A DNA stretch of 64,000 bases from Eledone cirrhosa (Eukaryota): NCBI GenBank assembly GCA_964016885.1, contig OZ024741.1, forward strand, positions 227,602,001 through 227,666,000, in the 5' to 3' direction. Numbering within the stretch: the first letter of the stretch is position 1; each line of letters opens with the position of its first letter. Both the position numbers and the translations under genes were made by a program. The notes under the pieces are model-generated. The model saw nothing but the letters and a program-made list of their open reading frames with translations, did not search any database and was not told the DNA's origin. Positions 8,214 through 62,350 of the stretch are shown here, one piece after another.

Positions 8214-8470
8214 ATTAAAGAGTTAAACAAGATTCAATGAGTACATCAAAGAATGAGTTTTCAGTAGATTGGAAGCACTCTACAAAAAAATAATTTTCTA
8301 GAGTTATTAATATTAAAATACAAATATTAATAAAATAGATATTCTTTTGATCAATTAAATTTTATTATACATATTTAAGAGGTACAACAGTACGTCCTCA
8401 TCAGACAAAATATAATGATACATGACACCTTGAGATGTTAAATGGTTAAGATTTAATCAAGGTAGTGATT
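8214..8470 (-). mobile_element. HHR-bearing terminal repeat (family H1) abutting (TA)n; HHR at 8360-8410 with damaged GAAA
   Basis: Homologous to 16067-16290; minus strand reads ttttgtCTGATGAggacgtac. Confidence 0.7.
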
Positions 8471-9149
8471 AATCTAAGAGAAAACTCAACATTTATACCC
8501 TAATAATGAGAAAATGCGAAAACGTAATAAATTCAATAGAGGATGTATGAGTAAGAAAAACGTTGCTTAATGTGACAGCTATAGAGATTTTAAAATGTGG
8601 GATACTACAAGTTATGGTTATCTAGGAAAACATCTCTTGAATTATAACTGCTTATGGAGGCAACTGATAGAAGATTTAAAGGGAGGGATAGATAAAGGGG
8701 AGTAATATATGCAGAACATTTTTTTTTTCCTTGAAGGCTAAACGGTTAAGTTTCAAAATATTTAATTTATGTTATTTTAAGGGTGAAGAATCCAAATTTT
8801 AAGTTTTTTTAAAAGTTATTTATATTTATTAATTTTATAAATTCTATAAATGTGTTAATATTTCTAAAATTCTGAATTTTATGAGGACAAAATTTAAAGA
8901 ATTTACTTGGCCAACGAAAGGAAAATTTACACTGTTGAATATTTTCCTAAATGTAATCTTTAACGAAAATTACCTATAAGAATGTCAACATTTTCGGTAT
9001 GTAAAGCTTATGAAGTACTTATTGTTAGAAATATCTACAAATTATTTGTCAAGTAGTTAGTGTAATGATTAACGCAGATTTTACTAAAGTTAAATACATA
9101 CATATATATAGAAGGAGTGTAAACGCATGGATGATTCACAGTTCGAAGG

Positions 9150-11720
9150 CTAAAGGAATAGGGGTGGGGAGTTCAGGTCGGGGGGTGAGTGGGTCTGGTG
9201 GGTGAAGATGGTGCGTTGTTCGACCGTGAGGTGGTTGGCGGGGGTTCCATGGCATTGCAGTAGGCCACAGACTATGAGGTGGAGGGCGGAATGTCCAGCG
9301 GAAGGCGTGCTGGACAGAGAGAGAGTGGCCGTTGAGAACATGGATGGTGATGTTTGTGATGTGGGGGCAGGTGTGGCAACGAGGCCTGGAGAAGGGAAGT
9401 GAACCGGCGGGGGCGGGATTGGAGGGTAGGGAACTGTGGACGAGGAGGGTGCGGAGATTGCGTGCGCGTTTGAAGGAGGGGAGGGGTGGGGATGGGAAGT
9501 TTGGGGAAGTTGAGAGGTCGGACTGGAGGAGGAGGATGTTGCGGTGGAGGGGTAGGGGGAGGAGTGGAGGTGATGGGGAAGGGGAGACGGTGGGTGTGCG
9601 GTGGCGTGGGGTGGGGCGGTGGAACGATGGACAGCACGGGCGCGAGTGAGGGCGGTGTGGACGAGAGAGGGGGGTAACCTCGCTGGATGAAATGGCTGAC
9701 TAGGGAAAGGGCTTGGGACTCAAAGTCAGCATCTCGGCTGCAGAAGCGGCGGATCCGGAGGAGTTGGGAGTAGGGAATAGAGTGTTTAGTGTGTGTAGGG
9801 TGGGAGGAGGCGAAGTCGAGGTAGGAGTGGGAGTCAGTGGGTTTTAAGAAGGCGGAGGTGACGAGGGAGCGGTGGGAGAGGTCGAAGGCGCTGGAGATGT
9901 CTAAGAAGTGGATGTGGGTGGTGGAGGTAGAGGTGGTGAAGTGGAGGGAGGGGTGGAAGGAGCAGAAGAAGGAGAGAAAGGAGTCGAGCTGTTCTCGTGC
10001 GAGGGTCGTGGCTCCGATGTAATCGTCGATGTAACGACCGTACAGTTCTAGCGTGGGGCCGGTGTTCTGGGCAAAGATTTGGGCCTCAATATTTCCAACG
10101 AAAAAATTGGCATAGTTTGGGCCCATTATTGTGCCCATGGCTACCCCCCTGAGCTGTTGGTAAAACACACCCGAGAAGGAGAAGCAGTTGAGGGTGAGGA
10201 CCAGCTCGGCGAGGCGAAGGAGGTGGGTGGGGGGGGGGGGGGTGGAGGAGAGGCGAAGGCCGAGGTAGTGCCGGAGGGCACGTAGGCCGTTGTAGTGGGG
10301 GATGACAGTCTAGAGGACTGGATATCTAGGGTAAAGAGGAGGGGATGTGGGCCGGGTAGGAAAGTGAAGGAGTCGAACAGGCGAAGGGCGTGGTTGGTGT
10401 CGGGATGAAGACGAAGATGGAGTGGGCGAGGAGGCGGTGGCATGAGGAGTTAAGGTGGGAAGGGTTGGGGTGAGTTTGTAGTCAAGGTTGCGGATGGTGG
10501 AGAGGGAGGAGCGGATGGAATTGCGTATTAGGAAGCGCGAGGATCGGGTGAGGATATGTTGGGTGGAGAGGGAAGCGGAGGGGGAGGTGTGGTAGTTTAG
10601 TCGGAAGCCAAGGGGGATGTGGTGGAGGTGGAGGCAGCGGCTGAGGAAATGCATGTGGTTGGAATGCCGGGTTTTGGCGAAGAGAAGGTAGGAGAGTTGG
10701 AGGGCCGAGGGGAGATTGCAGAGTGGGAGAAGGCTGTGTGGAGTTGGTGGATAAAATATCTCAGGCTGGGCATGGTGGGCGAGGAGTAAAAGCGGGAGGA
10801 GGTTGATGCGGGGTGGGGGGCACGGAGGGGTAAGGGCGAAGGGGTAGACAGAGACGGGGGAGGGAAAATCAAACATAAAAAAAACAAAAAAAATATCGTG
10901 AGGGGAAAGTATTCACAGGAAAGCAGGGACAAAAAAAAAACAAAAGCAAAAAAATCGTAATCAGAGATGAACACAGGATATCATGGAAAAAACATAAACT
11001 AAAATTCAAAAGCAGAAAAAATACAGTAATAAATAAATAAATAATGCAAATAGGAAAAAAGGAAAAAATAGGAAAAAGTAACAAGCAAAGAAAATGTTGT
11101 GGGGGACTATGGGGAAGTTCAGAGGGTGGTCACGGCGGATTAAATCGGGGTTGAGCCGGTAGTAAAGGTGGTATCCAAGGTGGTGTGGAAGCCGTGTAAG
11201 CGTGTATTGTATAGTGCAAATTTAGACGGGAACACAACAGAGAGGCAGACAAATAAAGGTTTATTAAGTTCACGCTCTTGAGAGTGTGTGTGTGGGGAGG
11301 GGGGGTGATGTTTCGGACATAAGCCCTTCTTCAGGAGTAAATAGGTTAGGAAGAGAGTTCCGAGGGTGTATGGAAATACATTTAGAGAAAAGGGGGGAAG
11401 GAGAACAAATAAAAATAAAAATAAACGTAAAAATAAACATAAGAATAAACTATAAGATGAACAAGTGGTGGAAGGGTGGTGGCGGGTAAGGGTGGTGGCG
11501 GGTGGAGTTGAGAGAGGGAGGCGGGGGGTCGAAGCGGGGAAGGCTGAAGGTGGTGTTTGTGTATGTGTGTAGGTGTACGTGAGTGTGTGTACGTGTGTAT
11601 GTGAGAGGAAGAACGATATATATATATATATATATGAATAACAGTGACAGTAACAGGAGACAAGCCAGCTATTTAACTGCAACTACCACCAAACCACCGA
11701 GGAAGGGATAAACGAAAATG
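9150..11720 (-). mobile_element. Neptune-type Penelope-like element, internally deleted; pLTR/5' region ~10870-11720, RT ~9650-10450, GIY-YIG C-terminal remnant ~9150-9300
   Basis: LFTLDIQS, FYQQLRGVAMGTIMGPNYAN, YGRYIDD, FLDI, KPTDSHSYLDFASSHP, SIPYSQLLRIRRFCS, EQRTIF..PPDLN. Confidence 0.9.
11305..11340 (-). ncRNA. Minimal HHR motif in Neptune pLTR (second copy at 19395-19425, + strand)
   Basis: ctcCTGAAGA-agggcttatgtcc-GAAAC. Confidence 0.65.
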
Positions 11721-11812
11721 TTAGTTTTATATATATATGTAAACTATGTTCAATAACCCCTTCTAATTAATATACACCTTAATTTTATTATAAACTTTTT
11801 ATCATATTTCCA

Positions 11813-11858
11813 CTAGTATGAAGAAGTCGAAACATTTATCGGCAGAAACCGGTACTAT
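11813..11858 (+). ncRNA. HHR-like motif with A at core position 3 (second copy at 18866-18911, - strand)
   Basis: tagt-ATGAAGA-agtcga..tcggc(t/a)-GAA-ACCGGT-A-cta; palindromic stem III typical of PLE minimal HHRs. Confidence 0.55.
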
Positions 11859-11929
11859 AAATTAATTTAAAAGAATGTTTTGCTGTTATTCTATGAGAAA
11901 ATCCTATCAGCATTTTCTACAGCTTTTCG

Positions 11930-12102
<173 letters not shown>

Positions 12103-12212
12103 AATTAGTATATCTACCAACATATATATACAGATGCATACCTATGCTAGCAAATATATAGGTTTTGTCTTAGTAACTTTGTGGTTCAATGCAAGGGGAT
12201 GCAGAACAATAA

Positions 12213-13011
<799 letters not shown>

Positions 13012-13485
13012 GTATAAAAGAGAAAACACAGGTAAATATTAAGAGAAGGATTTTATCCAGGTATTTACGACCGTTTCATTGGTAAGTGCAACTTTATATT
13101 CCTATACTGCAAATATCAGCCACTCAATTATAATTGTTGTTCACAGTCCAAATTTTCAAAATAGTAAGTTGCTCTTGAAATAATTCTTAATATATAGAGA
13201 AAAACATTTATTTGGAATTGTATTTACTAGTATAGAGAGAGAGGAATCAGAAGGTGAGGGGACAGACGGAATAGTATAGAGAGAGAAGAAGGGGGAAGAG
13301 GTAGCAGGTAGAGTGACAGACTGAGATGGAGGGAGGGGTAGAGGTGCAAGGATTCTCTGGTCAGTTTTGATAGCAGACTTCATGTCGTGGAATGTAGTGA
13401 GTTAAAGAGAATTAAATTGATCATAGTGGGAGGGATGGATAGAGAGGGAGAGAGAGGGAGAGAGAGAGGAGGGAGATATAAAGAG

Positions 13486-13547
<62 letters not shown>

Positions 13548-13622
13548 AAGATAAAATAATAATGACAAAAATAAAAGCAAAGAAGGGGGTGAGAAAGAAG
13601 AAAAGAAAAGATAACCAAGAAA

Positions 13623-14330
13623 GTTACTCTACTACGCTTAACATAGCATACCACATAGCTAGTAGCAATAAAAGAAAAATTAATTCTTACTTCCAACAAA
13701 CTAAATCACAACAGGCGATAAACCTTCATAATAACATTATATCAATTAACCCTAATAACAATAGTAATAATAGTAATAGCACTAGTGTAAGTAATAACGC
13801 TGGGAACATCAACCCCCATAACTATAATCCTATAGCTACCATCCGGATTTCTACACAACATAATATCCGGCAGACTAACCCAGAATAATTGTAACTGTAG
13901 ATAAAATAGAACCTGCCCTTTAGATAAAAAAATGCTTAATCAAGGATATAATATACTCATGCACGGTCACAACTAGCAACTCTTCTGAAATCTATATAGG
14001 CTCTACTTCAAACTGCTTCAAAACTAGATACAATTCGCACCTCCACTCTTTCAAAAAACACAGTTTAGCCAACTCCACTTCACTATCTAGCTACATAAAC
14101 TATCTAAAAACTAAAAATAAATCTTATACACTTAAATGGGAAGTGATAGGTAACGCGACATCGTACAAACCACCTAATACATTTTGTAACCTCTGTCTAC
14201 TAGAGACCCATACTATTATCTTCTCAAACCGTAACCTCCTTAATAAAAAATCAGAAGTGTTCGCGTCTTGCCAGCACCGCTTCCGACTCTCCTTCCAAAA
14301 CTTTAAACCCAATATATAACAATGTCAGAC
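13623..14330 (+). pseudogene. Naiad-type PLE 3' fragment: linker plus GIY-YIG endonuclease
   Basis: SYSTTLNI..; IYSCTVTTSNSSEIYIGSTSNCFKTRYNSH..STSLSSY..LKWEVI..CNLCLLE..LLNKKSEVFASCQH. Confidence 0.85.
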
Positions 14331-16024
14331 TTGAAACCGTCACCACCTCTAGCAACAAACCTCAAGAGCACACCTTACACCACATCTCCACACTCAATGA
14401 TCCACATTAACACAAATAGTGAATTCCTTCTAGAACCTTTTACCCTAGAGATATCCCCATGTACATCTGCTTTTGGTATAATTGCCTTCAATTACTTAGA
14501 CTACATTACACCACTATATAATTAATGTAAACTTTAAACACTGAATGGGTTGTGCTAATGTTGTTCTGTGTATGGAGTGCCATCATTGGATAAATGGAAG
14601 ATTAATTAATTTATTAACATAAAGAACTATATAAGCTTTATGCTGGGTACAATGAATTATGTGCAAGTGATATATGAGTTGTACATACATGTATGACTTG
14701 ATGGTCAGATTGGTGACATTGTAAGTGAGAATTAATCTCTGGTCTACCCTAGTGATATTTACCTTTGCCATGCAATCTGACATGCACTGACCCAGAGCTT
14801 ACCGGGAGTTATATATAGAAGTGATTATAATAAAACCCTGCCAGGTTCTGCGGGTAGACTACACTTACAAAAATCATTGATTTGGGAATCTGACTCTTCA
14901 TGTAGAATATTCAGTTGTGGCACTCTATGATAGAGGGTAATCATCCTAATATGAACACCTTTAGTACTTCTTCATAGACTAGACTGTAATTTAAAGATAG
15001 GATACTTATACTTAGAAACTGTTTATAACCTATATGATAGAGACTCATGTGTGATACCATTTAATGTACATTAGGATAATATATTTTAGTTATAGAAATC
15101 AGCTAGTTACCTCCCCTCACGCATTAACTCCCCTTAATCACACACACACATTTCCGGAAAATAATACGATGTTAAGCCTCGCAACAAAAACAACCTGCTC
15201 TATAATATTGGATTAAAGAACATCAAGCTGTAATATTCCAACCTAATTCATCAAGCATCCAATATTGAATCATCGTAGATTATGTGAAGAACATATAATC
15301 TATATATTACGTTTCCTGGATTGTGAAAATGGTGGTGTATACGAAAAACCATAACACTGTTTTGCTTCTCATAACTTAATATTTTAAATATTTCTCTGCA
15401 CACAAGCTTCTATATCATACATATAAAATACTATACAACCCCCATAATACTCTTGATTGCCCGCTTAAAGTGCTTATATTCCATATAACACCTTACCGCA
15501 CTATAATCTTATATAAATAGGACACACGTGCATGCCCCACGTGTAACTAACTACTTCTAACTATCCTCCTGCATCATCTTCGTAAACTGCCAATGTTGTA
15601 TTATAACTTTAATTTTGTTGTAATGTTCTTTTAATATGACTTTAATCTTTAAATGTAAACTGCCATGCTTAAATATTATAATGGATGTTAACCCACTGTG
15701 CATCAATATATACATATGTTTCTGTATGTCTCTTGTGTTGAAAAGGAGGTCAAGTATGTAAACAATCATTGAAAAATTGCTCCGAAGACTTCAAATCTCG
15801 GTTTGGAAGAAACAATTGTAAGCGAATAAATGATTTGAACAGAACTTTGATTCATGTAATTTCTATATAACTGCTCTGTAGAACAATTGATGTTATTACA
15901 TTGAGCTATTTATCTTACTGGTATTAAGGTAGTAATAAATTACTGTCTTTCACTGTTTAGGGCTTAAAATATATATAACTATAAAAGGTTTTAGTATATA
16001 CATAACCATAAATAGTATCCTTAA

Positions 16025-16066
<42 letters not shown>

Positions 16067-16072
<6 letters not shown>

Positions 16073-16290
16073 GAGTTAAACAAGATTCAATGAGTTTTAG
16101 AAAGAATGAGTTTTACAGTAGATTGGAAGCACTCTACCTTGATTAAATCTTAACCATTTAACATCTCAGGTTATATCATGTATCATTATATTTTGTCTGA
16201 TGAGGACGTACTGTTGTACATCCGAAATATGTATAATAAAATGTAATTGATCAAAAGAACATCTATTTTATTAATATTTGTATTTTAATA
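16067..16290. mobile_element. Family H1 terminal repeat with internal inversion, flanked by (TA)n
   Basis: 16067-16137 is direct to 8214-8283; 16138-16290 is inverted relative to 8310-8465. Confidence 0.8.
16191..16241 (+). ncRNA. Type I minimal hammerhead ribozyme
   Basis: ttttgt-CTGATGA-ggacgtac(tgtt)gtacatcc-GAAA-tatgta-TA-ataaaa; stems I and II pair. Confidence 0.8.
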
Positions 16291-16342
16291 CATATATACA
16301 TGATATATATATATATATACATGATATATATATATATTATAT

Positions 16343-16538
16343 ATAGGAACCAGTAAGACCCCGACGGCTGAGCTCAAGCCGTTTCGACGGCTAATTCTAG
16401 AGTCCAGAATTAGCCGTCGAAACGGCTTGAGCTCAGCCGTCGGGGTCTTACTGGTTCCTATTACCCACTCTACTACCTCAAGTATTGAGTACTTTGGTGC
16501 GTTATGGTCCACCTGGTTCCTTACCACATTTCCTTCGT
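16343..16538 (+). mobile_element. Palindromic half-HHR element, family P copy A (56 bp arms plus ~77 bp tail) in (TA)n
   Basis: Perfect inverted repeat 16343-16398/16406-16461; homologous to 48304 and 48866 copies. Confidence 0.9.
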
Positions 16539-16591
<53 letters not shown>

Positions 16592-16608
16592 TATATATAT
16601 AAATACAC

Positions 16609-16644
<36 letters not shown>

Positions 16645-16646
<2 letters not shown>

Positions 16647-17170
16647 GAATGTAGATATGGTGTATTCGGTAATACACTGTATGCTTAATTAAAAGCATTT
16701 TGAAGACCTTACGCTATTGTTATAAAGTAGTGACTATGTCACTTACTTCTTTTTTCAACATTCAAAGGGAGCTCAGCTGACAGATCTCTGTTTCATACTG
16801 TTGGTATTCCTCAGAGCTTAGCACTCTTTTTGTTTGTTGAAAATTATGAATGTTGGATTCTTATAGAATTCCAGTAATAATGAGGAACTGATTATACAGA
16901 GCGGTTGCCGGTCCAGCAAAAATTGAAAACTAGAATTGGTGCTTTGAAATAGCGGTATATATGAAGGTATATATAGTGTATTTGGTAATACACTGTATGC
17001 TTAATTAAAAGCATTGCTCCTTTTGTTTGTTAAAAAAAGAAGTAAGTGACATAGTCACTACTTTAAAACAATAGCGTAAGGTCTTAAAAATGCTTTTAAT
17101 TAAGCATACAGTGTATTACCAAATACACCATATATACATTCATATATACATCGCTATTTCAGAGGACCAA

Positions 17171-17175
<5 letters not shown>
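16645..17175. mobile_element. pLTR-like repeat with direct and inverted partial copies, flanked by (TA)n
   Basis: 16645-16770 is inverted versus 17015-17145; 16950-17015 directly repeats 16645-16700; related to 1290-1400. Confidence 0.75.
16771..16822 (-). ncRNA. Type I hammerhead ribozyme, canonical core
   Basis: agct-CTGAGGA-atac(caaca)gtat-GAAA-cagagatctg-TC-agct; GUC triplet. Confidence 0.85.
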
Positions 17176-17248
<73 letters not shown>

Positions 17249-17444
17249 AACCATAGACTCAAAGAGAAGTTTTCGCACTACAAATCAAACCCTTAACCTC
17301 TTACTACCAACTGACAAAATACATATACTTAAACTTTATACCCTCTTGTATCTAAACCCTTTTAATTACCCACAAAACCAATGCATATATCCCTCGCTTC
17401 TCCCTCTTCTATTTCTTCGTTTTCTTCCTTCCTTCCCTCCCCTT

Positions 17445-17961
17445 CTTGGCTATCTTTTCTTTTCTTCTTTCTCACCCCCTTCTTTGCATTTATTTTTGTC
17501 ATTATTATATCTCCCTCCTCTCTCTCTCCCTCTCTATCCATCCCGGCCACTATGATCAATTTAATTCTCTTTATCTCACTACATTCCACGACATGAAGTC
17601 TGCTATCAAAACTGACCAGAGAATCCTTGCACCTCTACCCCTCCCTACATCTCAGTCTGTCACTCTACCTGCTACCTCTTCCCCCTTCTTCTCTCTCTAT
17701 ACTATTCCGTCTGTCCCCTCACCTTCTGATTCCTCTCTCTCTATACTAGTAAATACAATTCCAAATAAATGTTTTTCTCTATATATTAAGAATTATTTCA
17801 AGAGCAACTTACTATTTTGAAAATTTGGACTGTGAACAACAATTATAATTGAGTGGCTGCTATTTGCAGTATAGGAATATAAAGTTGCACTTACCAATGA
17901 AACGGTCGTAAATACCTGGATAAAATCCTTCTCTTAATGCTTACCTGTGTTTTCTCTTTTA

Positions 17962-18005
<44 letters not shown>

Positions 18006-19073
18006 GACGTAAAATAAGAAAATTATGAAAATTAACTTACTTACTAAAATGTCACTCCAACTAATTAGTTTCTGAAAGGGAATAAACATGGTTTCCAAAT
18101 GGAACAACTATGGAGAAATCCTTTCGTCATCAGGGAAGTCTATTCTCAGCTAAGTTCCCAGGCAATGCGTGGACACAGGGAACTTATACAAAAATAATTC
18201 AGTGGATGGAAAAAAGTAAAGCGTGGACTAAGTTCCAAGACATTGAAAAAATCACTGCCTACTTGGTCGGTGGCAAATTCAAAAGAATCAATCACGTGAC
18301 ATCGAGGTTAATCAGTGAGGAGTGGTGTGTTAATAATCCTCACTGATTAACCTCAATGTCACGTGATTGATTCTTTTGAATTTGTCACCGACCAAATAGG
18401 CAGTGATTTTTTCAATGTCTTGGAACTTAGTCCACGCTTTGCTTTTTTCCATCCACTGAATTATTTTTGTATAAGTTCCCTGTGTCCACGCATTGCCTGG
18501 GAACTTAGCTGAGAATAGACTTCCCTGATGACGAAAGGATTTCTCCATAGTTGTTCCATTCGGAAACCATGTTTATTCCCTTTCAGAAACTAATTAGTTG
18601 GAGTGAAATTTTAGTAAGTTAATTTTTATAATTTTCTTATTTTACGTCTTTCATATTATTGTTCTGCATCCCCTTGCATTGAACCACAAAGTTACTAAGA
18701 CAAAACCTATATATTTGCTAGCATAGGTATGCATCTGTATATATATGTTGGTAGATATACTAATTCTTTATATATATATATATATTAGAAAATACGAAAA
18801 GCAGTAGAAAATGATGATAGGATTTTCTCATAGAATAACAGCAAAACATTCTTTTAAATTAATTTATAGTACCGGTTTCAGCCGATAAACATTTCGACTT
18901 CTTCATACTAGAGGAAATATGATAAAAAGTTTATAATAAAATTAAGGTGTATATTAATTAGAAGGGGTTATTGAACATAGTTTACATATATATATAAAAC
19001 TAACATTTTCGTTTCTCCCTTCCTTGGTGGTTTGGTGGTAGTTGCAGTTAAATAGCTGTTACTGTCACTGTTA

Positions 19074-19110
<37 letters not shown>

Positions 19111-20161
19111 TTCTTCCTCTCACATACACACGTACACACACTCACGTACACCTACACACATACACAAACACCACCTTCAGCCTTCCCCGCTTCGACCCCC
19201 CGCCTCCCTCTCCCAACTCCACCCGCCACCACCCTTACACGCCTCACACCCTTACACGCCTCACACCACTTGTTCATCTTATAGTTTATTCTTATGTTTA
19301 TTTTTACGTTTATTTTTATTTTTATTTGTTCTCCTTCCCCCCTTTTCTCTAAATGTATTTCCATACACCCTCGGAACTCTCTTCCTAACCTATTTACTCC
19401 TGAAGAAGGGCTTATGTCTGAAACACCCCCCCCCCACACTCTCAAGAGCGTGAACTTAATAAACCTTTATTTGTTTGTCTCTCTGTTGTGTTCCCGTCTA
19501 AATTTGCACTATACAATACACGCTTACACGGCTTCCACACCACCTTGGATACCACCTTTACTACCGGCTCTCAACCCCGATTTAATCCGCCGTGACCACC
19601 CTCTGAACTTCCCCATACTCCCCCACAACATTTTCTTTGCTTGTTACTTTTTCCTATTTTTTCCTTTTTTCCTATTTGCATTATTTATTTATTTATTACT
19701 GTATTTTTTCTGCTTTTGAATTTTAGTTTATGTTTTTTCCATGATATCCTGTGTTCATCTCTGATTACGATTTTTTTGCTTTTGTTTTTTTTTGTCCCTG
19801 CTTTCCTGTGAATACTTTCCCCTCACGCTATTTTTTTTATTTTTTTTTTATGTTTGATTTTCCCTCCCCCGTTTCTATCTACCCCTTCTCCCTTACCTCC
19901 GTGCCCCCACCCCGCATCACCCCCTCCCGCTTTTACTCCTCGCCCACCATGCCCAGCCTGAGATATTTTCTCCACCAACTCCACACAGCCTCAAAATCCC
20001 CCCCTCCTCCCAAACTGCAATATCCCCTCGGCCATCCAACTCTTCTACCTTCTCTTCGCCAAAACCCGGCATTCCAACCACATGCATTTCCTCAGCCGCT
20101 GGCTCCACCTCCACCACACCCCCCTTGGCTTCCGACTAAACTACCACACCCTCTCCACCCA
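17445..20161. repeat. Right arm of inverted duplication; ends abruptly inside the Neptune ORF N-terminus
   Basis: Reverse complement of 10560-13622 with small indels. Confidence 0.9.
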
Positions 20162-20677
20162 GTAGCGTGAATAGGGTTATCGACAACTAGAAACAGCAGT
20201 CAAGTCCTTTCAACAGAGTTAGCTCTACAATTAAGGAGCCGTATTTATATATCTATATCTAAAATTAAGATAAATCAAATGAATTTAATCCAAATCAAAA
20301 TTATGGGTGTCATGCCAGAAAGACATGCGCCATATCACCTGCAAAATAAGCTCTAAGATTCTAACGAGTAGGTCAGAGCATTTTATAATTACTAGAAATT
20401 GATTAACATATAAATAAACATGAATAATCACAGGAGATAATTTTTACAAGTGTGCAACCACACATAGCTAGGTAGGTAACTAAATAAAGTTGACCAGAAC
20501 TTCAAAAATAGATACCTTATAATATGATTAATCTTCCCTGTATATATTCCATTAAAGAAATATATTTCACCAATTAATCAGATGGTAAACCACGGATGCC
20601 GATACTTTGATTTTCAACAAGGAAGAAGTTCCAGCGATCCGTGTTTACACTTCAAGTTCAAATCAGCGACTGGCCAC

Positions 20678-23600
20678 TGGTGTTTGTGGTGGTGGGGGTG
20701 GTGTTGATGGTTGTGGTGTCGTTGGTGGTGTTGGTGGTATAGGTGGTATAGGTGGTGGGGCTAGTGTTGGTGGTGTCGGTGTTGGCGGTGTTGGTGGTGG
20801 TGGTGTTGGTGGTGGTGGTGTTGGTGGTGATGTTTGTGGTGGTGCTGCTGGTTGTGGTGGTGGTGGTTGTTGTGGTGGTGGTGGTGTTGGTTGTGGTGTT
20901 GGTGGTGTTGGTGTATTTGTGGTATTGGTGGCGGTGGTGTCTGTGTGGGTGGTGTTGGTAGTGGTGGTGTTGGTTGTGGTAATGTTGGTGTTGCTGTTGG
21001 CGGTGGGGTATTTGGGGTGGTATTAGTGGTGGTATTGGTGGTGGGGGTGGTGTTGGAGGTTGTGTGGTGGTGGTGGTGGTGGTGTTAGTGGTGGTGTTGG
21101 TGTTGGAGTTATTGGTGGTGGTTGTGGTGTTGCTGCTGCTGGTGGTGGTGGTGGTGGTGGTATTGGTGGTAGTAGTGTTGCTGGTGGTGAAGTAGGTGGT
21201 GGCGGTGGTGGTGCTGGTGGTGTTGGTGGTGATGTTGGTGGGGATGGTGTTGGTGGTGGGGCTGTTGGTGGTGGTGGTAGTGGTGGTTGTGGTGGTGTTA
21301 GTGGTGGTGGTGTTAGTGGTGGTGAGGGTGGTGGTGGTGGTGGTATCGTTGGTGGTGCTGGTGTTGGTGGTGGTGTTGATGGGGGTGGTGGAGGTGGTAG
21401 TGTTGATGGTGGTGTTGGTGGTGGTGGTGTTGGTGTTGGTGTGGTGGTGCTTGTGATGGTGGTGGTGTTGATGGTGGGGTGGTGCTGTTGTTTGTGGCGA
21501 TGTTGGGCGTGCTGTTGTTAGTGGTGGTGTTGCTGGTGGTAGTATTAGTGGTGGTATTGGTGGTAGTGGTATTGGTGGTGGTTGTGGTGGTGCTGGAGGT
21601 TGTGGTGGGGGTGAGGATGCTCGTGGTGGTATTGGTGGTGGTGGTTGTTGTGGTGGTGATGTTGGTAGTGGTGGTGTTGGTGGTGGTGGTGGAATTGGTT
21701 GTGGTGGTGGTGTTGTTGTTGTTGGTGGTGGTGGAGGTGGTGTTGTTGTTGTTGGTGGTGGTGTTGTTGTTGTTGATGGTGGTGGTGGTGGTGTTGGTGG
21801 TGATGATGGTGGGGCTGTTGGTGGTGGTGTTGGGCGGTGTTTGTTTTGGTGCTGAAGTTGGTGGCGGTTGTGGTGGTGGTGGTGGTGGAGGTGGTGTTGG
21901 TGGTGGTTGTCTTGGTGGTAGTGTTGGTGGTGGTGGTGTTGGTGGTGGTATTTGGTGGTGGTGGTGGTGTTGGTGGTGGTGGTGGTGGTGTTGGTGTTGG
22001 TGGTGGTGGTGGTGTCGTTGTTGGTGTTTGTGGTGGTGGTACAGGTGGTGGTGCTGGTGGTGTTGGTGGTGGTGGTGTTGGTGGTGCTGTTGGTTGTGGT
22101 GGTGGTGGTGGTGGTGGTGTATTGGTGGTGTTGGAGGTGGTGGTGTTGGTGGTGGTGTTGTAGGTGGCAGTGTTGGCGATTGTGGTGTTGGTGTCATTGT
22201 AGGTGGTGAGGGTGTTGGTGGTGCTTGTGATGGTGGTGTTGTGGTGGTGGTGGTAATGGTGTTGGTGGTGTTGGGGGGGGGGGGGGGGCTTGGAGGTTGT
22301 GTGGTGGTGGTGGTGTTGGTGGTGGTGGTGTTAGTGGTGGTGTTGGTGTTGGAGGTATTGGTGGTGGTTGTGGTGTTGCTGGTGTTGTTGGTGGTAGTTG
22401 TGTTGGAGTTGGTGGTGATGGTGGTGTTGGTGGTGGTGGTGTTGGTGGTAGTGGTGGTGGTGCTGGTGGTGGTGGTATTGGTAGTGACTGTGGTGGTGGT
22501 GGTGTTGGTGGTAGTGGTGGTGGTGGTGTTGGTGTTGGTGTTGGTGGTTTTGTAGGTGGTGTTGGTGGTGATGGTGGTGGTGGGGTCGGTCGTGGTGTTG
22601 CTGGTGGTGGTGGTCGTGTTGTTGCTGGTGTTGGTGGTGGTGGTATTGGTGGTGGTTGTGGTGGTGTTGTTGTTGTTGTTGGTGATGGTGGTGTTGGTGG
22701 TGGTGGTGTTGGTGGTGGTGTTGGTGGTGGGGGTATTGGTGGTGGTTGTGGTGGTGGTGGTGGTGGTATTGGTGGTGGTTGTGGTGTTGGTGGTGGTGTT
22801 GGTAGTGGTGTTGCTAGTGGTGGTGGTGGTGTTGTTGCTTGTGTTGGTAGTGGTGGTATTGGTGGTGGTGTTGGTGTTGGTGGTGGTGGTGTTGGCGGTG
22901 GTGGTGTTGGTGGTGGTGATGGTGGTGTTGGTGGTGGTGGTATTGGTGGTGAGTGTGGTGGTGGTGGTTTTGGTGGTGGTTGACTTAGTTGTGGTTGTGG
23001 TATTGGAGGTGGTGATGGTGCTGGTGGTACTGCTGGTGGTGCTGGTGTTGGTGTTGGTGGTGGTGATGGTGGTGGTGTCGTTGGTGGTGTAGGTGGTGGT
23101 GGTAATGGTGGTAGCGCTGGTGTTGGTGGTGTCGGTGTTGGCGGTGTTGGTGGTGGTGGTGGTGGTGGTGGTGGTGGTGGTGGTGGTGTTGGTGGTGGTT
23201 GTTCTGGTGGGGGTGGTTTCGGTTGTGGTGGTGTATTGGTGGTGTTGGTGGTGGTTGTGGCGGTGGTGTTGGTGGTGGTGGTGGTATTGGAGGTTGTGGT
23301 GGTGGTGGTGGTGTTTGTATGGGTGGTGGAGGAGGTGTTGTTGGTGGTGATCGTGATGGTGTTCGTGTTGGTGTTGGTGGCTGGGGTAATGGTGATGGTG
23401 GTGGTGGTGGTGTTGGTTGTGGTGGTGGTTGGGGTGGTGATGTATTGGTGGTGTAGGTGGCGGTGGTGTTGGTTGTGGTATTGTGGGTGTTGCTGTTGGC
23501 AGTGGGGATATTTTATTGTGGTTGTGTAGGTGGTGGTATTAGTGGTGGTGTAGGTGGTAGTGTTATTGGTAGTGGTTGTGGTGGTGGTGGTTGTGCTGTT

Positions 23601-26092
23601 GTTGTTGGTGGTGGTGTTGGTGGTGGTGGTGTTGGTGGTGATGGTGGAGTTGGTGGTGTTTGTGTTGGTGATATTGTGCTGGTGGTTTATTGTGATGATG
23701 TTGGTAGTGGGGGTTTTGATGGCGGTGGTGGTGGTGTTGGTGGTTGTGGTGGTTGTGTTGGTACTGTGGTGTTAGTGCTGGTGTTGGTGGTGGTTTTCGT
23801 GCTGCTGGTGTTGGTGGTGCTGGTGGTGTTGTTTGTGGTGGTGGTTGTGGTGGTGTTGGTGGAGGTATTGGTGGTGGTGGTGTTGCTGGTGGTTGGGGTG
23901 GTGGTTGTGGTGGTGTTGGTGGTGGTATTGGTGGTGGTGGTGTTGCTGGTGGTTGGGGTGGTGGTGTTGGTGGTAGTGTTCGTGGTGGTGGTGTTTTTGG
24001 TGGTTGTGGTGGAGGTGATGTTTGTGGCGGTGGTTGTGGTGTTGGTGTTGATGCTGGTGGTGGTGGTGGTATTGGTGTTGTTGTTGTTGTTGGTGGTGGC
24101 GGTGGTGGTGGTCATGGTGTATTGGTGGGGTTGGTTGTGGCGGTGGTGTCGGTGTGGGTGGTGTTGGTAGTGGTGGTGGTGGTAGTGGTGGTGTTGGTTG
24201 TGGTAGTGTTGGTGTGGCTGTTGGCGGTGGGGGTATTTGTGATGGTTGTGGAGGTGGTGGTATTTGTGGTGGTATTGGTGCTAGTTTTGTTGGTGGTGGT
24301 GTTGGTGGTGGTGGTGTTGGTGGTGATGGTGGTGTTGGTGGTGTTGTTGTTGGTGGTATTAAGGGTGGTTGGGGTGCCGGTGTTGGTGGTGGTGGTGGTG
24401 GTGATGGTGGTGGAGTTTGTGGTAGTGGTGCTGCTGATTTTGTTGTTGGTGGTGGTGGTGTTGGTGGTGGTGGTGGTGGTGATCTTGTTGCTGCAGGTGT
24501 TGGTGGTGGTTGCTGGTGGTGGTGGTGTTGGTGATGGTGGTGTTGGTGGTGTTGGTATTGGTGGTGGTGCTGGTGGTGATGGTGTTTTTGGTGGTGGTTG
24601 TGTTGGTGGTGGTGGTGGTGGTGTTGTTTGTGTTGTTGTTGTTGTTGGTGGTGGTGTTGGTGTTTGCCGTGGTGGTGCAGGTGGTGGTGCTGGTGTTGTT
24701 CTTGGTTGTGTTGTGTTGGTGGTGGTTTGGTCGTGGTGGTGTTGTTGTTGGTGGTGTTGTTTTTGTTGGTGGTGATGGTGTTGGTGGTGGTGCTGGTGGT
24801 GTTGTTGATTATGTTGGTGGTGCTGGTGGTGGAGTTGGTGTTTTTGTTGTGTATGGTGGTGGTGGTGTTGCTCGTGGTGGTGGTGCTCGTCGTGGTGGTA
24901 GTGGTGTTGGTGGTGGTGGTGGTGGTGGTGGTGTTGGTGGTGCTGTTGGTTGTGGTGGTAGAATTGGTGGTGGTGTTGGTGTTGGTGGTGGTGGTGTTGG
25001 CGGTGCTGGTGTTGGTGGTGTTGAAGATGGTGTTGGTGGTGGTGGTGTTGGTGGTTATGGTGGTGGTGGTGTTGGTGGTTGTGTTGGTGTTGGTGGTTGT
25101 GGTGGTGTTGGTGGTTGTGTTGGTGTTGGTGGTTGTGATGGTGTTGGTGGTATTGGTGGTGGTTGTTGTGGTGGAAGTGGTGGTGGTGGTGCTTGTGGTG
25201 GTGGTGTTGGTGGTGGTGGTGGTGGTGGTGGTGTTGGTGCTGGTGGTATTGGTGCTGGTGTTGGTGGTGGTGGCGTTGGTAGTGATGTTGTTAGTGGTTT
25301 AGGTGTCGGATGTGTTGTTAGTGGTTGTTATTGTTGTTGTTGTTGTTGTGGTGGTGGTTGTGTTGGTGGTGGTGGTGTTGGTGGTGTGGTATTGGTGGTG
25401 TTGGTGGTGGTGGTGTTGGTGGTGTTGTTGTTGTGTGGTGGCGGTGTTGGTTTTGGTGGTGGTGGCGGTGGTGGTGGTTCTGGTGATGGTCGTGTTAGTG
25501 GTGGGGATGTTGGTGGTGGTGTTGGTGGTGGTGTTGGTGGTGGTGTTGGTGGTGGTGCTGGTGTTGTTGGTGGTGGTATTGGTGCTGGTTGTGGTGGTGT
25601 TGCTGTCGGTGGTGGTGGTGTTGTTGTATCTGGTGATGGTGGTACTGGTGGTCGTGGTGTTGTTGATGGTGGTGGTGGTGGTTTAGATTGTGGTGGTGTT
25701 GGTGGTGGCGGTGGTGGTTGTGGTGGTGGTTTCCTTGATGGTGGTCGCGATGGTTGTTGTGGTCGTGGTGTTGTTGGTGGTTGTGGTGGTGGTGGTGTTG
25801 GTGGTGGTGTTATTGCTGGTGGTTGTGGTGTTGGTGGTGGTGGTGTTCTTGATGGTGATGATAGTGATGGTGTTGGTGGTGCTGGTGTTGCTGGTGGTGG
25901 TGTTGGTGGTGGTTGTGTTGGTAGCGGTGGTGTTGGTGGTGGTTTTGTTGTTGCTGGTGTTTGTGGTGGTGGCGTTGTTGATGGTTTTGTTTGTGGTGGT
26001 GGTGTTGGTGGTGGCGTTGTTGTTGTTGTGTGATGGGGTTGGTGTTACTGGTGGTGGTGTTGGTGGTGGTGGTATTGTTGGTGGTTGTGGTG

Positions 26093-32999: not shown

Positions 33000-33004
<5 letters not shown>

Positions 33005-36000
33005 TAAAATAACAGATTAAAGTTTAAGCAAAGAATCGTTGCTTTCACCCTTAACGGGATCTTCTGAAACTAATAAAGTCAATCTGTAAACGCAGAAGTG
33101 GATATTTCAAAAAACGTTGAAACCTGAGGAAGACAGGAAGACGATACTTTGGTTCGTGGAAACGTTCCCTGGCAAAGAACGGGAAAAAACGAATATAATA
33201 CGCCATTAATAGGAGCGGTGAAAAACAATTACGCGCAAAGACAGAACCACGTTTATGGTATAAAAGAAGTCGTAGACTAATGTTCTCTTAGGTGGTTCAT
33301 AGAGACGTTCTCTGGCAATGAACAAAAAAACGAAGATAATACGTCATATGTGGAGCGTGGAGGACAATTGCACGCAAAGACAAAACCACGTAAATGGTAT
33401 AGCTGAAGTAGACTAAAATTCTAACTAGGAAACCGAATGAATCTCCGATTCAGAGTTAAGAATAAAGTAAAAAATGCAATAGAGAGGTAATAGAAATTAA
33501 ATAAATACATACACGCATGCAAAACCGTACATACACAAGCATACGCAAAAACACTTGCCATAGGTATACAAAACCACGCACATATAAATATGTGTGTTTG
33601 TGTATACAAATAAATAAATAATTAAATAAACGTATATAAATAAATAAATACGTACATAACAAGCGCACACACATACCTACATGTAAATACACAAATGTTC
33701 GGAGACGTACGTCAACCAAAACATGACTACACATATACACACACGCTACATACGTACGAACCTGCATACTCACACAGACGCAAAACTCCCGTATACACAT
33801 AACCAAACCATATGTACCAGAAATAAAATTATACGCCATAACATATACAATCAAATATACGTACGAGAAAGTATACGTACTTTCACAAAACATGCAGGTA
33901 ATATATACTTACCTAAGCGAATAAGTAATGGTATAAAAAAAACATATACTTAGCTACCACATCAACACGTAAATTATCCACGTATAGATCGTACTATCCG
34001 TTAGGGTATAACGTGGGGCTGTAATACAGGAAAGTTTTGTGCAATTTATGTTTACAAGCCGAAATTGCCTCAGATTTTTTGTTTAAGATGTGGTCTGTGG
34101 CGTAGAGTATTTCCAGGGCCTCAGCGGCGCAGAGGTCACGTGGTCTTTTATTTCCGTTATACGATCTAGCCCTAGCTAGGATATCCCAGTGTAACTTATA
34201 TTGGGGTGGTTATCTTTTAGACTCCAGATATAAGCTGAGAGTGACGTCATATTCCTTCTTAGAGGGTAACGAAAAGAATGGGTATGCATGTAAAGACGCT
34301 GCTTGAATCTATTGGCGGTTAACCCTTTGTAGGCCCTACATAGGGTTTCAACCTTACATTTGTAGACAATGTTACTAGAGAGGCATTTCCCGGATAGGGG
34401 GCAATCAACCCGATTCCTACAATTACAGTTAGTACTACCTACAGGGTTGCACGTGTTCCTACGGCTAGGTAGTTTAGCTAAATTTGAAGCTGTGATGTTA
34501 TGTGCAAGGTTAAGAGTCGTAGAGTAAGAAATTTTAATAGTATTTCTATTAAAAATGTTACTATATTTATGTGTAGGGGGAAAATGCTTCGTAATAAGGG
34601 AAAGAAAGATCTTAGCTAATGGTGTGGCCACCTCCATATTATATGGTGGGTTTTACCAACAAATGCGCCCGGATCTATTTCTTCTAGGTCTATTTTCGTA
34701 CTCTGTATATGCTACCTTATCGACAAATCCACTCCGAGCAAGAGCTTCATTGTAATAAGTGGAATGGTCGTTGAAAATATGCTCGTTAGTAGATAGACGG
34801 GAAAGCCTCAACGAAACATTTCTTACCAGGTTCTTGGTTATGCTGGCAGGATGGTTGGAATGCTTACTTATGTAATTAAGCGTATCATTCGGCTTTCTAT
34901 ACGGGTAATACAACCTATTCGATAAATTGAGGGTAACGTCGAGGTAATTAACGACCGAGAGATTGGCCTCAACCTGTATAGAGAGGTTGAAGCCTTTAAA
35001 GAGGGCTGTGAGTTCTTTTCTGAACTTGTCGCAAGCACGAGGCGAGGGTCTGCACTTAGTCATGGTCAAAAGACCATCATCACGGTACAAGTCACCGCCC
35101 GCGTTGGGGAATTCATCCTTCATAGAGAAAAGAAGGAAAAGGCCGATAAGATCAGTAACCTCCGCAGAATCGCTGGCGCCCATACTCACGTCGAATGGGG
35201 TACTATTGGATTTTTTAATCCAAATAGAGTCGTCGAAATTAATCACCGACTTACGGGCATTGAGGATGACATGAACTTCGAAATCCTTAACCACTGTGAG
35301 TGTTTTAGCGAAATTGATAGCTCTAAGGAGAAGTGGTAAAGTGATGGAGGAGTAGTAATTGTTGATGTCGAATTGGATAAAATGGCAATGTTCCTTGTTG
35401 CATATGCCGTTGAACTAATCAATCACCGCGAAAGAATTGTTCCACAGTGCAAGAGGGACCAAACTTCTAATTTTAGGTATAATTCTATCAAGAATCCTTT
35501 TACTAAGTCTACCTAAATCGGACTTCGCAGGGTTAATAAGCCAAATAGAGGGGTTGTTCGGAAAATTGGATTTGTGATCCTTCAGGGTAAAGTGGGGAGA
35601 AATAGGGTCCAGAGGTTCGGTCCGGTCCAGGATGTTGAGATCAGAGGTGATTTTAAATCCAGCTTCGTTGATTTCATTGATGACGCACCGATTAGTTTTA
35701 CAGTAATCCTTAGTTACAGAATTATGTAGTAGTTGATGGTAAGTACTGCGATCCACTTGATATAAGTTGCCAGTTTTGTCGGAATGGACGTGCACGGCAT
35801 TAGAATCCTTAATAGAACGAATTCTATTCTTCAGGTCCTGCTGGAAGGAATTGCTCCTATTCCGAAATGTGATACTCCGTATGAGTTTCAAGACATCATT
35901 TTCGAAGGGTAGCAATGCTGGGTTACACGGGGGTTATTATAGGTTTTAAACCCAAATTTATCCGTTTTGTTGTCTGCTTTTCGCGGATTATCGAAATAAA

Positions 36001-36447
36001 AGGCACGCCAACGCAGCCTTTTAATGAACGCGTCTGTTTTCTGTATCAGGAGTTTTAGGTATGTATTCCTGCTTGGTACGGGTATGTTCTTTGTAGAAAT
36101 ATTCAGATGTTGTTTCTGCATGATGAATATAAGTCAATAGAGTGCTCAACCGAGGGAGCCAAATAGTAATAATAATAAATTTGAAGACTAAAATCCAAAG
36201 ACGGCTCGATAAGGATAAATATATATCAAATATATAAGAACCGTTGAGCAAATATTTATTAAAATAACAGATTAAAGTTTAAGCAAAGAATCGCTGCTTT
36301 CACCCTTAACGGGATCTTCTGAAACTAACAAAGTCAATCTGTAAACGCAGAAGTGGATATTTAAAAAAACGTTGCAACCGGAGGAAGACAGGAAGACGAT
36401 ACTTTGGTTCGTGGAAACGTTCCCTGGCAAAGAACGGCAAAAAACGA
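33000..36447 (-). mobile_element. Near full-length Naiad-type Penelope-like element with pLTRs at ~33000-33420 and ~36165-36447
   Basis: Direct terminal repeats flank an RT-EN ORF; 3' end abuts (TA)n. Confidence 0.92.
33994..36121 (-). pseudogene. Naiad-type RT/GIY-YIG ORF with about two frameshifts and two stops (TAG 35415, TAA 34653)
   Basis: STKNIPVPS, IKRLRWRA, FGFKT, SDKTGNLY, LKDHK, INPAKSDLG, FDINNYYSSI, FDVSMGASDSAEV, LYRDDGL, YLDVTL, PYRKPND, SNHP, CNCR..CPLSGKC, IVYKC, FKQR. Confidence 0.93.
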
Positions 36448-38540
36448 TCAACCTCTCTATACAGGTTGAGGCCAATCTCTCGGTCGTTAATTACCTCGAC
36501 GTTACCCTCAATTTATCGAATGGGTTGTATTACCCGTATAGAAAGCCGAATGATACGCTTAATTACATAAGTAAGCATTCCAACCATCCTGCCAGCATAA
36601 CCAAGAACCTGGTAAGAAATGTTTCGTTGAGGCTTTCCCGTCTATCTACTAATGAGCATATTTTCAACGACTATTCCACTTATTACAATGAAGCCCTTGC
36701 TCGGAGTGGATTTGTCGATAAGGTAGCATATACAGAGTACGAAAATAGACCTAGAAGAAATAGATCCCGTCGCATTTGTTGGTATAACCCACCATATAAT
36801 ATGGAGGTGGCCACACTATTAGCTAAGATCTTTCTTTCCCTTATTACGAAGCATTTCCCCCCTACACATAAACATAGTAAAATTTTTAATAGAAATACTA
36901 TTAACATTTCTTACTCTATGACTCCTAACCTTGCACATAACATCACAGCTTCAAATTTAGCTAAACTACCTAGCCGTAGGAACACGTGCAACCCTGTAGG
37001 TAGTACTAACTGTAATTGTAGGAAACGGGTTGATTGCCCCTATCCGGGAAATGCCTCTCTAGTAACATTGTCTATAAATGTAAGGTTGAAACCCTATGTA
37101 GGGCCTACATAGGGTTAACCGCCAATAGATTCAAGCAGCGTCTTTACATGCATACCCATTCTTTTCGTTACCCTCTAAGAAGGAATATGACGTCACTCTC
37201 AGCTTATATCTGGAGTCTAAAAGATAACCACACCCAATATAAGTTACACTGGGATATCCTAGCTAGGGCTAGATCGTATAACGGAAATAAAAGACCACAT
37301 GACCTCTGCGCCGCTGAGGCCCTGGAAATACTCTACGCCACAGACCACACCTTAAACAAAAAATCTGAGGCAATTTCGGCTTGTAAACATAAATTGCACA
37401 AAACTTTCCTGTATTACAGCCCCACGTTATACCCTAACGGATAGTACGATCTATACGTGGATAATTTACGTGTTGATGTGGTAGCTAAGTATATGTTTTT
37501 TTATACCATTACTTATTCGCTTAGGTAAGTATATATTACCTGCATGTTTTGTGAAAGTACGTATACTTTCTCGTACGTATATTTGATTGTATATGTTATG
37601 GCGTATAATTTTATTTCTGGTACATATGTTTTGGTTATGTGTATACGGGAGTTTTGCGTCTGTGTGAGTATGCAGGTTCGTACGTATGTAGCGTGTGTGT
37701 ATATGTGTAGTCATGTTTTGGTTGACGTACGTCTCCGAACATTTGTGTATTTACATGTAGGTATGTGTGTGCGCTTGTTATGTACGTATTTATTTATTTA
37801 TTTATATACGTTTATTTAATTATTTATTTATTTGTATACACACACACACACACACACACATTATTTATATGTGCGTGATTTTGTATACCTATGGCAAGTG
37901 TTTTCGTGTATGCTTGTGTATGTACGGTTTTGCATGCGTGTATGTATTTATTTAATTTCTATTACCTTTCTATTGTATTTTTACTTTATTCTTAACTCTG
38001 AAGCGGAGATTCATTCGGTTTCCTAGTTAGAATTTTAGTCTACGACTTCAGCTATACCATTTACGTGGTTTTGTCTTTGCGTGCAATTGTCCTCCACGCT
38101 CCACATATGACGTATTATCTTCGTTTTTTCCGTTCATTGCCGGAGAACGTCTCTATGAACCACCTAAGAGAACATTAGTCTACGACTTCTTTTATACCAT
38201 AAACGTGGTTCTGTCTTTGCGTGTAATTGTTTTTCACCGCTCCTATTAATGGCGTATTATATTCGTTTTTTCCCGTTCTTTGCCAGGGAACGTTTCCACG
38301 AACCAAAGTATCGTCTTCCTGTCTTCCTCCGGTTGCAACGTTTTTTAAATATCCACTTCTGCGTTTACAGATTGACTTTGTTAGTTTTAGAAGATTCCGT
38401 TAAGGGTGAAAGCAGCGATTCTTTGCTTAAACTTTAATCTGTTATTTTAATAAATATTTGCTCTACGGTTCTTATATATTTGATATATATTTAGCCTTAT
38501 CGAGCCCTCTTTGGATTTTAGTCTTTCAATTTATTATTAT

Positions 38541-38545
<5 letters not shown>
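36448..38545 (+). mobile_element. Inverted 5'-truncated copy of the same Naiad element (RT C-terminus, GIY-YIG, 3' UTR, full pLTR with ~140 bp subrepeats)
   Basis: Reverse complement of 33000-34990; RAYIGLT intact; ends at (TA)n. Confidence 0.93.
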
Positions 38546-38604
<59 letters not shown>

Positions 38605-48265: not shown

Positions 48266-48303
<38 letters not shown>

Positions 48304-48307
<4 letters not shown>

Positions 48308-48492
48308 AAGTATGAACCCGACGGCAGAGCTCAAGCCGTTTCGACGGCTATTTGAGTCCAGAAATAGCCGTCGAAACGGCTTGAGCTCTGCCGTCGGGTT
48401 CATACTTTTTCCTATTTCCCACTCTACTACCCTAAGTATTGAGTACTCTGGTGCGTTATGGTCCATCTGGTTCCTTACCACATTTCCTTTGT

Positions 48493-48865: not shown

Positions 48866-49105
48866 AGCGAGGGAAAAGTGGTAAGGAACCAGGTGGACCA
48901 TAACGCACCAAAGTACTCAATACTTAGGGTAGTAGAGTGGGTAATAGGAGTAAGTAAGACCCCGACGGCTGAGCTCAAGCCGTTTCGACGGCTAATTCTG
49001 TCAATTCACAGAATTCTGTCAATTCACAGAATTCTGTCAATTCACAGAATTCACAGAATTAGCCGTCGAAACGGCTTGAGCTCAGCCGTCGGGGTCTTAC
49101 TTACT

Positions 49106-49110
<5 letters not shown>
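48866..49110 (-). mobile_element. Palindromic half-HHR element, family P copy C; loop expanded by an 18 bp tandem repeat
   Basis: Arms 48944-49001/49053-49110; tail 48866-48943. Confidence 0.9.
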
Positions 49111-49301: not shown

Positions 49302-49364
49302 TACATGGGAGTCGAACCCACATCTTTGGTTATCCAGACCACTGTGCTACCATTACACCAACTT
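49302..49364 (-). other. tRNA-like Pol III head (SINE head or tRNA pseudogene)
   Basis: A box tggtgtaatgg, B box ggttcgactcc; acceptor stem does not pair. Confidence 0.55.
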
Positions 49365-49977: not shown

Positions 49978-50037
49978 AGATAAAGTGGTCCTGATGTCCG
50001 TTTCTCTAGAGAAACGGACATCAGGACCACTTTATCT
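49978..50037. repeat. Perfect 60 bp spacerless palindrome
   Basis: agataaagtggtcctgatgtccgtttctct|agagaaacggacatcaggaccactttatct. Confidence 0.95.
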
Positions 50038-62085: not shown

Positions 62086-62350
62086 ATATTATTCAAAATG
62101 TTAACGAATGAAAAATATTCACATAATCAAAATATATACTTTATTATACATATTTCAAAGGTACTTAAACAACATAGTACATTTGAAATATGTATAAAAA
62201 AGTATATATTTTGACAATGTGAATAATTTTCATTTGTTAACATTTTGAATAATATTAAAAACTCCAGGAAAACCCCTACCTGTTGAGTGTTTCTAATCTA
62301 TTGTAAAATTGTATTCGTTGAGTAATCAACGAACCATACTAATCTTTGGT
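62086..62350 (+). mobile_element. Palindromic half-HHR element of the H1-like family (~80 bp imperfect arms plus tail) in (TA)n
   Basis: Arms 62086-62165/62176-62255; tail gagtgtttctaatctattgtaaaa matches H1 tail gagtgcttccaatctactgtaaaa. Confidence 0.8.

Follow-up and report, generated by a model that had tools for sequence, protein, structure and literature searches.

Among the systems described in the literature, those closest to the insertions considered here are the Penelope-like elements (PLEs) of the Hydra clade, which have a short open reading frame (ORF) with a reverse transcriptase (RT) followed by a GIY-YIG endonuclease, the motifs RW(K/R), DKT, CxCX5C (in the linker), CxxC and CxH, an inverted 5'-truncated copy and a tail, with members that target (TA)n (PMC8557442). 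In the rotifer Adineta vaga, head-to-head PLE copies form a palindrome at the inverted junction, with an optional tail on one arm and an initiator-like motif, TCACT, in the pseudo-long terminal repeat (pLTR); self-priming, probably on an antisense template, was proposed for them (PMC3846280). For PAc Poseidon studied in vitro, two internal RT start sites bound the tail, both strands of AT-rich targets are cleaved and extended, ribozyme cleavage is dispensable, and a dimer was predicted (PMC11167929). An internal pLTR promoter is described for Penelope (PMC2377424), and the formation of tandem and inverted pLTR structures in PLEs has been named an open question (PMC8557442, PMC3846280). The present analysis concerns three short palindromes (c1, c2 and c3) in a stretch of 64,000 nucleotides (nt) of Eledone cirrhosa DNA (assembly GCA_964016885.1, contig OZ024741.1, positions 227,602,001-227,666,000, forward strand; hereafter the window) and the related insertions elsewhere in this genome.

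The three palindromes are stump insertions of a PLE into (TA)n. It is probable that such stumps are made when both cut (TA)n strands prime reverse transcription on sense RNA, the two complementary DNAs (cDNAs) run off the capped 5' end, and these are joined head to head. As read from the genomic footprint, each insert has one arm beginning at CCTA^T (site 2; the caret marks a boundary) and one beginning at the end of a tail 78 nt further on (site 1), and the two arms share a sharp limit, hereafter the wall, which falls on the A of (T/C)AGT in loop II of a hammerhead ribozyme, some 60 nt away from CCTA^. An initial annotation of the window had reported three palindromic copies that lie in (TA)n, end at one common position and share a tail of about 77 nt. 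All three were located, with arms of 53-57 bp, loops of 7, 8 and 51 nt, (TA)n on both sides, a tail-less arm ending at CCTA^T and a tail of 78 nt. The exactly mirrored centre that it described does not hold, since the loops differ from copy to copy, and the axis, which it placed in the stem II loop, falls more exactly where the two arms end, on the 3' edge of that loop.

The size of the family can be seen from exact matches across the genome, all counts of which are lower bounds. A 30-mer of the tail has 36,652 matches against 0 for its reversed control, tail-less ends of the form CCTA^TATATA have 32,649, and short palindromes whose arms both stop no more than 30 nt apart just 5' of stem II have 14,931. 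Five of 30 tail loci inspected continue into a longer element, and in full elements the tail sequence runs on into the 5' leader of the ORF. One locus, L110, is a full unit consisting of an inverted arm with tail, a pLTR, a tail, a 718-amino-acid ORF, and a 3' pLTR that runs up to CCTA^ before (TA)n. Read directly, this ORF holds an RT (FDI..YRDDGL motifs) and then a C-terminal GIY-YIG endonuclease (YIG..CxxC), together with RWR, DKT, CNCPDRSIC (CxCX5C), CNLC (CxxC) and CKH (CxH). A Pfam scan of the ORF protein returned 0 families; its look-alike proteins in the Atlas carry GIY-YIG and RVT_1, and, with 8000 scored, 2054 homologues have E<=1e-20.

By its ORF motifs, short ORF and (TA)n target, the element is assigned to the Hydra clade. 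The pLTR tandems, adjacent inverted 5'-truncated copy and tail at one end found here are the architecture of endonuclease-bearing PLEs. Unlike the members in the available text of PMC8557442, it has a U3-A8 ribozyme core (C3-A8 in one subfamily), a 78-nt tail, and a dominant palindrome of ~190 bp with a sharp wall. Naiad was rejected, the endonuclease being C-terminal here, and so was a non-LTR retrozyme, the short inserts being single inverted pairs without the 5' half of the core, not tandem monomers with complete hammerheads. The initial supposition that the inserts derive from the pLTR of a PLE bearing type I hammerheads is borne out by L110, in which an intact RT-GIY-YIG ORF and a U3-A8 hammerhead core occur together.

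The predicted hammerhead of the parent runs from stem I through YUGANAA, G, a long stem II, a loop II of ~31 nt, GAAA, stem III and GUC to stem I with a bulge. The 5' half is indeed missing from the short inserts, as initially noted; however, it is this YUGANAA half, with its long stem II and loop II, and not CUGANGA. At the true spacing, YTGANAA has 5,683 genome matches against 10 for the canonical CTGANGA, and a search for CTGANGA within 34 nt, a spacing too short, gave 43 matches that were mostly chance or left-arm. In lacking a canonical core, this PLE departs from the Hydra clade. U3-A8 is found in 42 and C3-A8 in 10 of 53 parent arms, N7 taking all four bases, and the features of a type I hammerhead (3-8 pair, free N7, G10.1-C11.1, GAAA, NUH, three helices) are present in the prediction. 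The minimum free energy fold of L110 is the three-helix form, though at z=-0.21; 90% of cells are paired in the alignment, and the parent stems are nearly invariant, with double changes at 2 pairs, each in a single sequence. Rfam listed no hammerhead in the window. The U3-A8 core is a described PLE variant, and Cercyon-type PLE hammerheads share it along with a long helix II with an unpaired 5' base, a short helix I, and opposite-strand motif pairs 100-700 bp apart (PMC4209133); helix III here is a full 5 bp rather than minimal, and the short inserts hold only the 3' ribozyme half. The ribozyme of the C3-A8 subfamily may be inactive, as judged from its core. This core mismatch in an abundant subfamily (L077, L078, L155, L164, L165) hints at dispensable cleavage. 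Ribozyme cleavage was rejected as the source of the wall: the cleavage site is 19 nt from CCTA^ and the wall at ~60. A small number of tailed arms do end at 18-26 nt.

The wall was measured in one subfamily with a known parent, on 95 distinct arms among 100 listed. Counted from CCTA^, 83 of the 95 end at 53-64 nt (modes 59 and 60), none at 65-120, and 12 at 121 nt or more. The modal stop falls at, or one base before, the A of (T/C)AGTCC in loop II, hereafter the putative +1. Comparable walls were found in other families, and 50 other (TA)n-flanked palindromic inserts, many of them palindrome-plus-tail, are present in the loci examined. In family F2, which has an ORF in the window (33001-38546) and 1,532 short palindromes genome-wide, the A of TT^AGTTTC is not passed by 35 of 38 arms, the next base being C in 7 of 12. 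In family F6 the wall lies where stem I starts on its 5' side, at C^AGATTC; it holds for 14 of 16 arms, with C as the next base in 4 of 6. The palindromes of the PLE-linked family F3 hold a complete canonical ribozyme on both arms, with the axis upstream of the whole ribozyme, and therefore the axis is independent of stem II. The walls of F3, F4 and F6b were read by eye only, the wall scripts having found no usable parents.

Beyond the wall, an extra base is commonly found. In 660 inserts both arms reach the A at +1 and go on with a non-parent base; an identical test set three bases earlier gives 15. Among 100 arm ends listed and read by eye, the base after +1 on the cDNA strand was C 69 times, G 30 times and T once; a script on 15 loci gave C 21, G 8 and T 1, against C in 11 of 30 at a control position (Fisher p=0.002). 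The parent base at -1 is T in 45, C in 8 and G in 0 of 53, and c1 and c2 both carry G directly 5' of the +1 A. Single-base inserts after +1 were C 54, G 42 and T 4 among 100 listed; in a second set C accounts for 76 of 86 (alternatively taken as G belonging to the partner arm), and in ~15 of 50 inserts listed the ends of both arms form C-x-G around one base. In L1 and SVA, an untemplated 5' G marks a copied cap (PMC4859970). On the evidence of these junctions, the wall is likely to be the transcription start of the pLTR and the extra G a copy of the cap.

Several observations weigh against this reading. Inserts at position 59 are G in 75 and C in 25 among 100 listed, and the absolute numbers of C inserts are about equal at the two positions (~57/227 at position 59, ~57/106 after +1). 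Eleven of the 95 arms pass +1 by 1-4 parent-matching bases, and a second start at +2, or realignment on repeated GTC/GAGT motifs, could explain some extra bases. Where arms are joined straight to (TA)n, the base at -1 is T in 87, C in 7, G in 5 and A in 1 of 100 listed, though TA microhomology dominates there. (T/C)AGT resembles the initiator consensus, but a short Y^A motif is common. Finally, the putative start is placed from junctions in genomic DNA, and the template may have been one RNA or a pair of RNAs with a common source.

It is also possible, though unlikely, that two primed cDNAs were joined as above and that the wall is a road-block, formed by bound ORF protein, by a sub-hairpin in loop II, or by an uncapped endonucleolytic 5' end. 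A small hairpin is predicted within loop II, and its 3' strand does contain the wall, but RT passes the longer stems III and II before reaching that point, and a pause would leak, whereas 0 of 95 arms end at 65-120 nt. Extra bases occur at position 59 too, yet C is enriched after +1 on both arms. The PAc protein binds and refolds its hammerhead region (PMC11167929); against a block of this kind, the F2 and F6 walls stand at Y^A in unrelated contexts and the F3 axis is upstream of the whole ribozyme.

Self-priming, in which one cDNA or antisense RNA folds back on stem II or elsewhere, is largely refuted for this family and is judged very improbable. The initial annotation had proposed it, in the form of a snap-back on stem II with the ribozyme helix as priming hairpin, as an idea not known to be described, and a general version for PLE head-to-head palindromes is already printed as the interpretation in PMC3846280. 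Arms that are mirror images of one template agree with it, and a 1-nt fold-back would fit some junctions, those in which an arm at +1 and a C are followed by a partner at 56. The product predicted for stem II, in which loop II and the parent 5' strand of stem II are kept, has however 1 genome match, at a locus running into unrelated DNA, against the 14,931 short palindromes, and the ribozyme helix as primer is rejected; in F3 the axis lies upstream of the complete ribozyme. A copy made by fold-back of a tailed cDNA can be no longer than its template; with at least 3 nt in the loop it must fall short of the wall, and a loop of zero nt is impossible for it. Tail-less arms nevertheless reach at least 59 nt in 28 of 51 short ones; among 48 parsed, the tail-less arm exceeds its partner in 26, matches it in length in 7 and falls below it in 15 (one or two mis-parsed via point mutations), so that it is the longer in about half of inserts. 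Joins in the 48 are blunt in 13, share 1-4 nt of microhomology in 20 and carry insertions in 15, and zero-loop joins are common, for example at L301, L311, L341 and L343. The C-x-G pattern on both arms also stands against self-priming, which leaves the precise CCTA stop of 32,649 ends unexplained. These limits, together with a cDNA begun at site 2 that has no tail to copy, mean that two cDNAs are needed.

The preferred account of two target-primed cDNAs differs from that given for Adineta vaga in that two sense-templated cDNAs would lie end to end, and from the in vitro work on PAc in that site 2 is the base of hammerhead stem I, upstream of the ORF; the origin of the inverted arm and the cDNA stops are not addressed in the available text of PMC11167929. 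Twin priming of L1 is similar in that two primers from one target produce an inversion (PMC4859970). Arms cut to less than 50 nt are more frequent among tailed partners (15/48, ~3 of them mis-parsed) than among tail-less ones (1/29), which fits, without proving, a second RT meeting the first cDNA on one RNA. In L1 twin priming there is inversion without duplication, whereas here one region close to the 5' end of the RNA is duplicated, each copy starting from its own fixed internal site. The cDNA ends would then be end-joined with 0-4 nt of microhomology, trimming and templated insertions. In the loop of c3 (49002-49052) and at G000:C1:10452571, reiterated junction-derived units are observed, which suggests repeated realignment at the template end, by telomerase-like RT slippage or host polymerase theta. 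At L005, L046, L049 and L056, the arm passes at about +1 into an inverted duplication, either of adjoining sequence or of sequence from another family, giving chimeric insertions.

Formation at each insertion was examined in 138 short palindromes, which are all the script finds among the loci examined; some of these loci were chosen by junction pattern, and the frequencies are therefore not representative. Exactly one tail is present in 134 of the 138. The stem I bulge is the same on both arms in 106 (19% expected by chance), the other 32 being mostly point changes or parsing offsets. Eighty-four different loops occur among the 138, and a given loop can be shared by as many as 5 subfamilies. 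Of the variants inside subfamilies, 5 are mirrored and 76 are not. It follows that the mirrored variants are subfamily markers and that the junction is made at each insertion. Derivation of both arms from one template, with the junction formed per insertion, is thus supported by the genomic copies. The initial annotation had correctly seen that bulge variants are mirrored within a copy and that each palindrome arises anew, and was mistaken in calling those variants copy-specific.

Two further explanations fare worse. It is scarcely believable that perfect palindromes of greater length were first inserted and then shortened by deletions at their centre: trimmed and internally deleted arms are frequent, but deletion would leave neither a wall on one side only, fixed at a single base, nor extra untemplated bases, and long head-to-head inserts whose arms reach 3.5 kb persist. 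A non-autonomous palindromic element copied as a unit, resembling a miniature inverted-repeat transposable element (MITE) or short interspersed nuclear element (SINE), is the least credible, since, despite very high copy number and some recurrent junctions, the loops are many and shared between subfamilies, the arms form a continuum into the RT ORF with the same outer ends, the tail is one-sided (not the structure of a DNA-transposon MITE), the sequence is the pLTR of an RT/endonuclease element, and loops defining clades with private mutations or transduced 5' flanks were not seen in the loci examined.

The long inserts are head-to-head pairs, mostly with one tail, and their junctions are scattered from about -100 to -3,500; the two outer ends stay the same while arm length varies continuously up to 3.5 kb. 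Of the inserts that had not been chosen as pairs, 13 were read by us; in 1 of them a long arm is joined to a wall-ending arm, the partner otherwise being long or tail-only. It seems that the two arms draw on a single class of template. Short-short pairs would arise from capped 5' sites, and long-long pairs from templates without this 5' end, such as a 3' pLTR, read-through or circular RNA.

A broader proposal, which we hold to be as probable as its contrary, is that the inverted repeat that is a hallmark of PLEs reflects double strong-stop synthesis. An RT/endonuclease dimer would prime both strands at a pair of fixed sites near the capped 5' end of the mRNA; a promoter in loop II would leave the 5' ribozyme incomplete and unable to sever the priming sites; and without strand transfer or a circular template, two cap-terminated cDNAs would be ligated into a palindrome. 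If so, palindromes would preserve, by the thousand in the genome, a record of transcription start and cap for every PLE family. The element type is already known, and the mechanistic footprint was not found in print and weighs against the published self-priming model. In a literature search covering mainly open-access papers, cap-terminated twin cDNAs in PLEs were not found (the supplements of PMC8557442 and PMC11167929 may bear on the question), and the available portions of PMC9977147 and bioRxiv 10.64898/2026.07.22.740005 added nothing decisive. Thousands of independent junctions in one genome separate the models: self-priming is rejected for this family, and support goes to two cDNAs that are primed at the target and end where the RNA has a discrete 5' end. 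Two-site initiation in vitro is thereby tied to the genomic inverted repeat, a DNA-only route to mapping PLE transcription starts is offered, and a source of tens of thousands of perfect genomic hairpins is explained. The coordinates in the window are collected in Table 1.

Table 1. Positions in the window of the three palindromic stumps and of a related insertion
Feature	Positions	Strand	Description
c1 arms	16344-16398 + 16406-16460		55 pairs, 7-nt loop, tail 16461-16538
c1 tail-less arm	16344..16398	-	55 nt; putative cDNA from site 2 (CCTA^T, hammerhead stem I base), joined to (TA)n
c1 junction	16399..16400	+	2 untemplated bases
c1 cap-like G	16400		directly 5' of +1 A; G there in 0/53 parent arms
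c1 tailed arm	16401..16460	+	putative +1 A = 16401; stem II 3' strand to stem I 3' strand with bulge, site 2
c1 ribozyme marks in tailed arm	16419-16422; after 16441		GAAA, then stem III, GUC site
c1 PLE tail	16461..16538	+	78 nt, between start sites 2 and 1
c2 arms	48301-48353 + 48362-48414		53 positions, outermost with 1 mismatch; 8-nt loop
c2 tail-less arm	48301..48353	-	53 nt
c2 cap-like G and tailed arm	48354..48414	+	G 48354, putative +1 A 48355, GAAA 48373-48376, cleavage site after 48395
c2 tail	48415..48492	+	
c3 tailed arm and tail	48867..49001	-	arm 49001-48945, tail 48944-48867
c3 junction	49002..49052		51 nt of reiterated junction-derived units (templated insertion)
c3 tail-less arm	49053..49109	+	57 nt; 57 pairs with tailed arm
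F2 head-to-head insertion, related PLE family	33001..38546		53% amino-acid identity to parent ORF; independent replicate in wall test, outside main finding

Other features of the window can be seen beside these insertions. Canonical CTGANGA hammerheads with a minimal stem III lie at 16197 (+), 32908 (-), 47237 (-), 49633 (+) and 8311-8488, and belong to other families, probably PLEs, similar to F3. The c1 copy is inside a giant nested inverted repeat at 10586-20150, which has inner palindromes at 12216-12868 and 18001-18653 and contains a PLE endonuclease fragment at 13930-14310. Additional palindromes at 16931-17175, 49978-50037 and 62089-62252 are probably stumps of other families, the one at 62089 having hammerhead-like GAAATATGTATAA ends. 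A tRNA-like match at 49305-49360 (-) (Rfam tRNA, 37 bits) is probably the head of a tRNA-derived SINE, and a strongly skewed G/T-rich array of short-period repeats extends over several kb at ~20580-26000.
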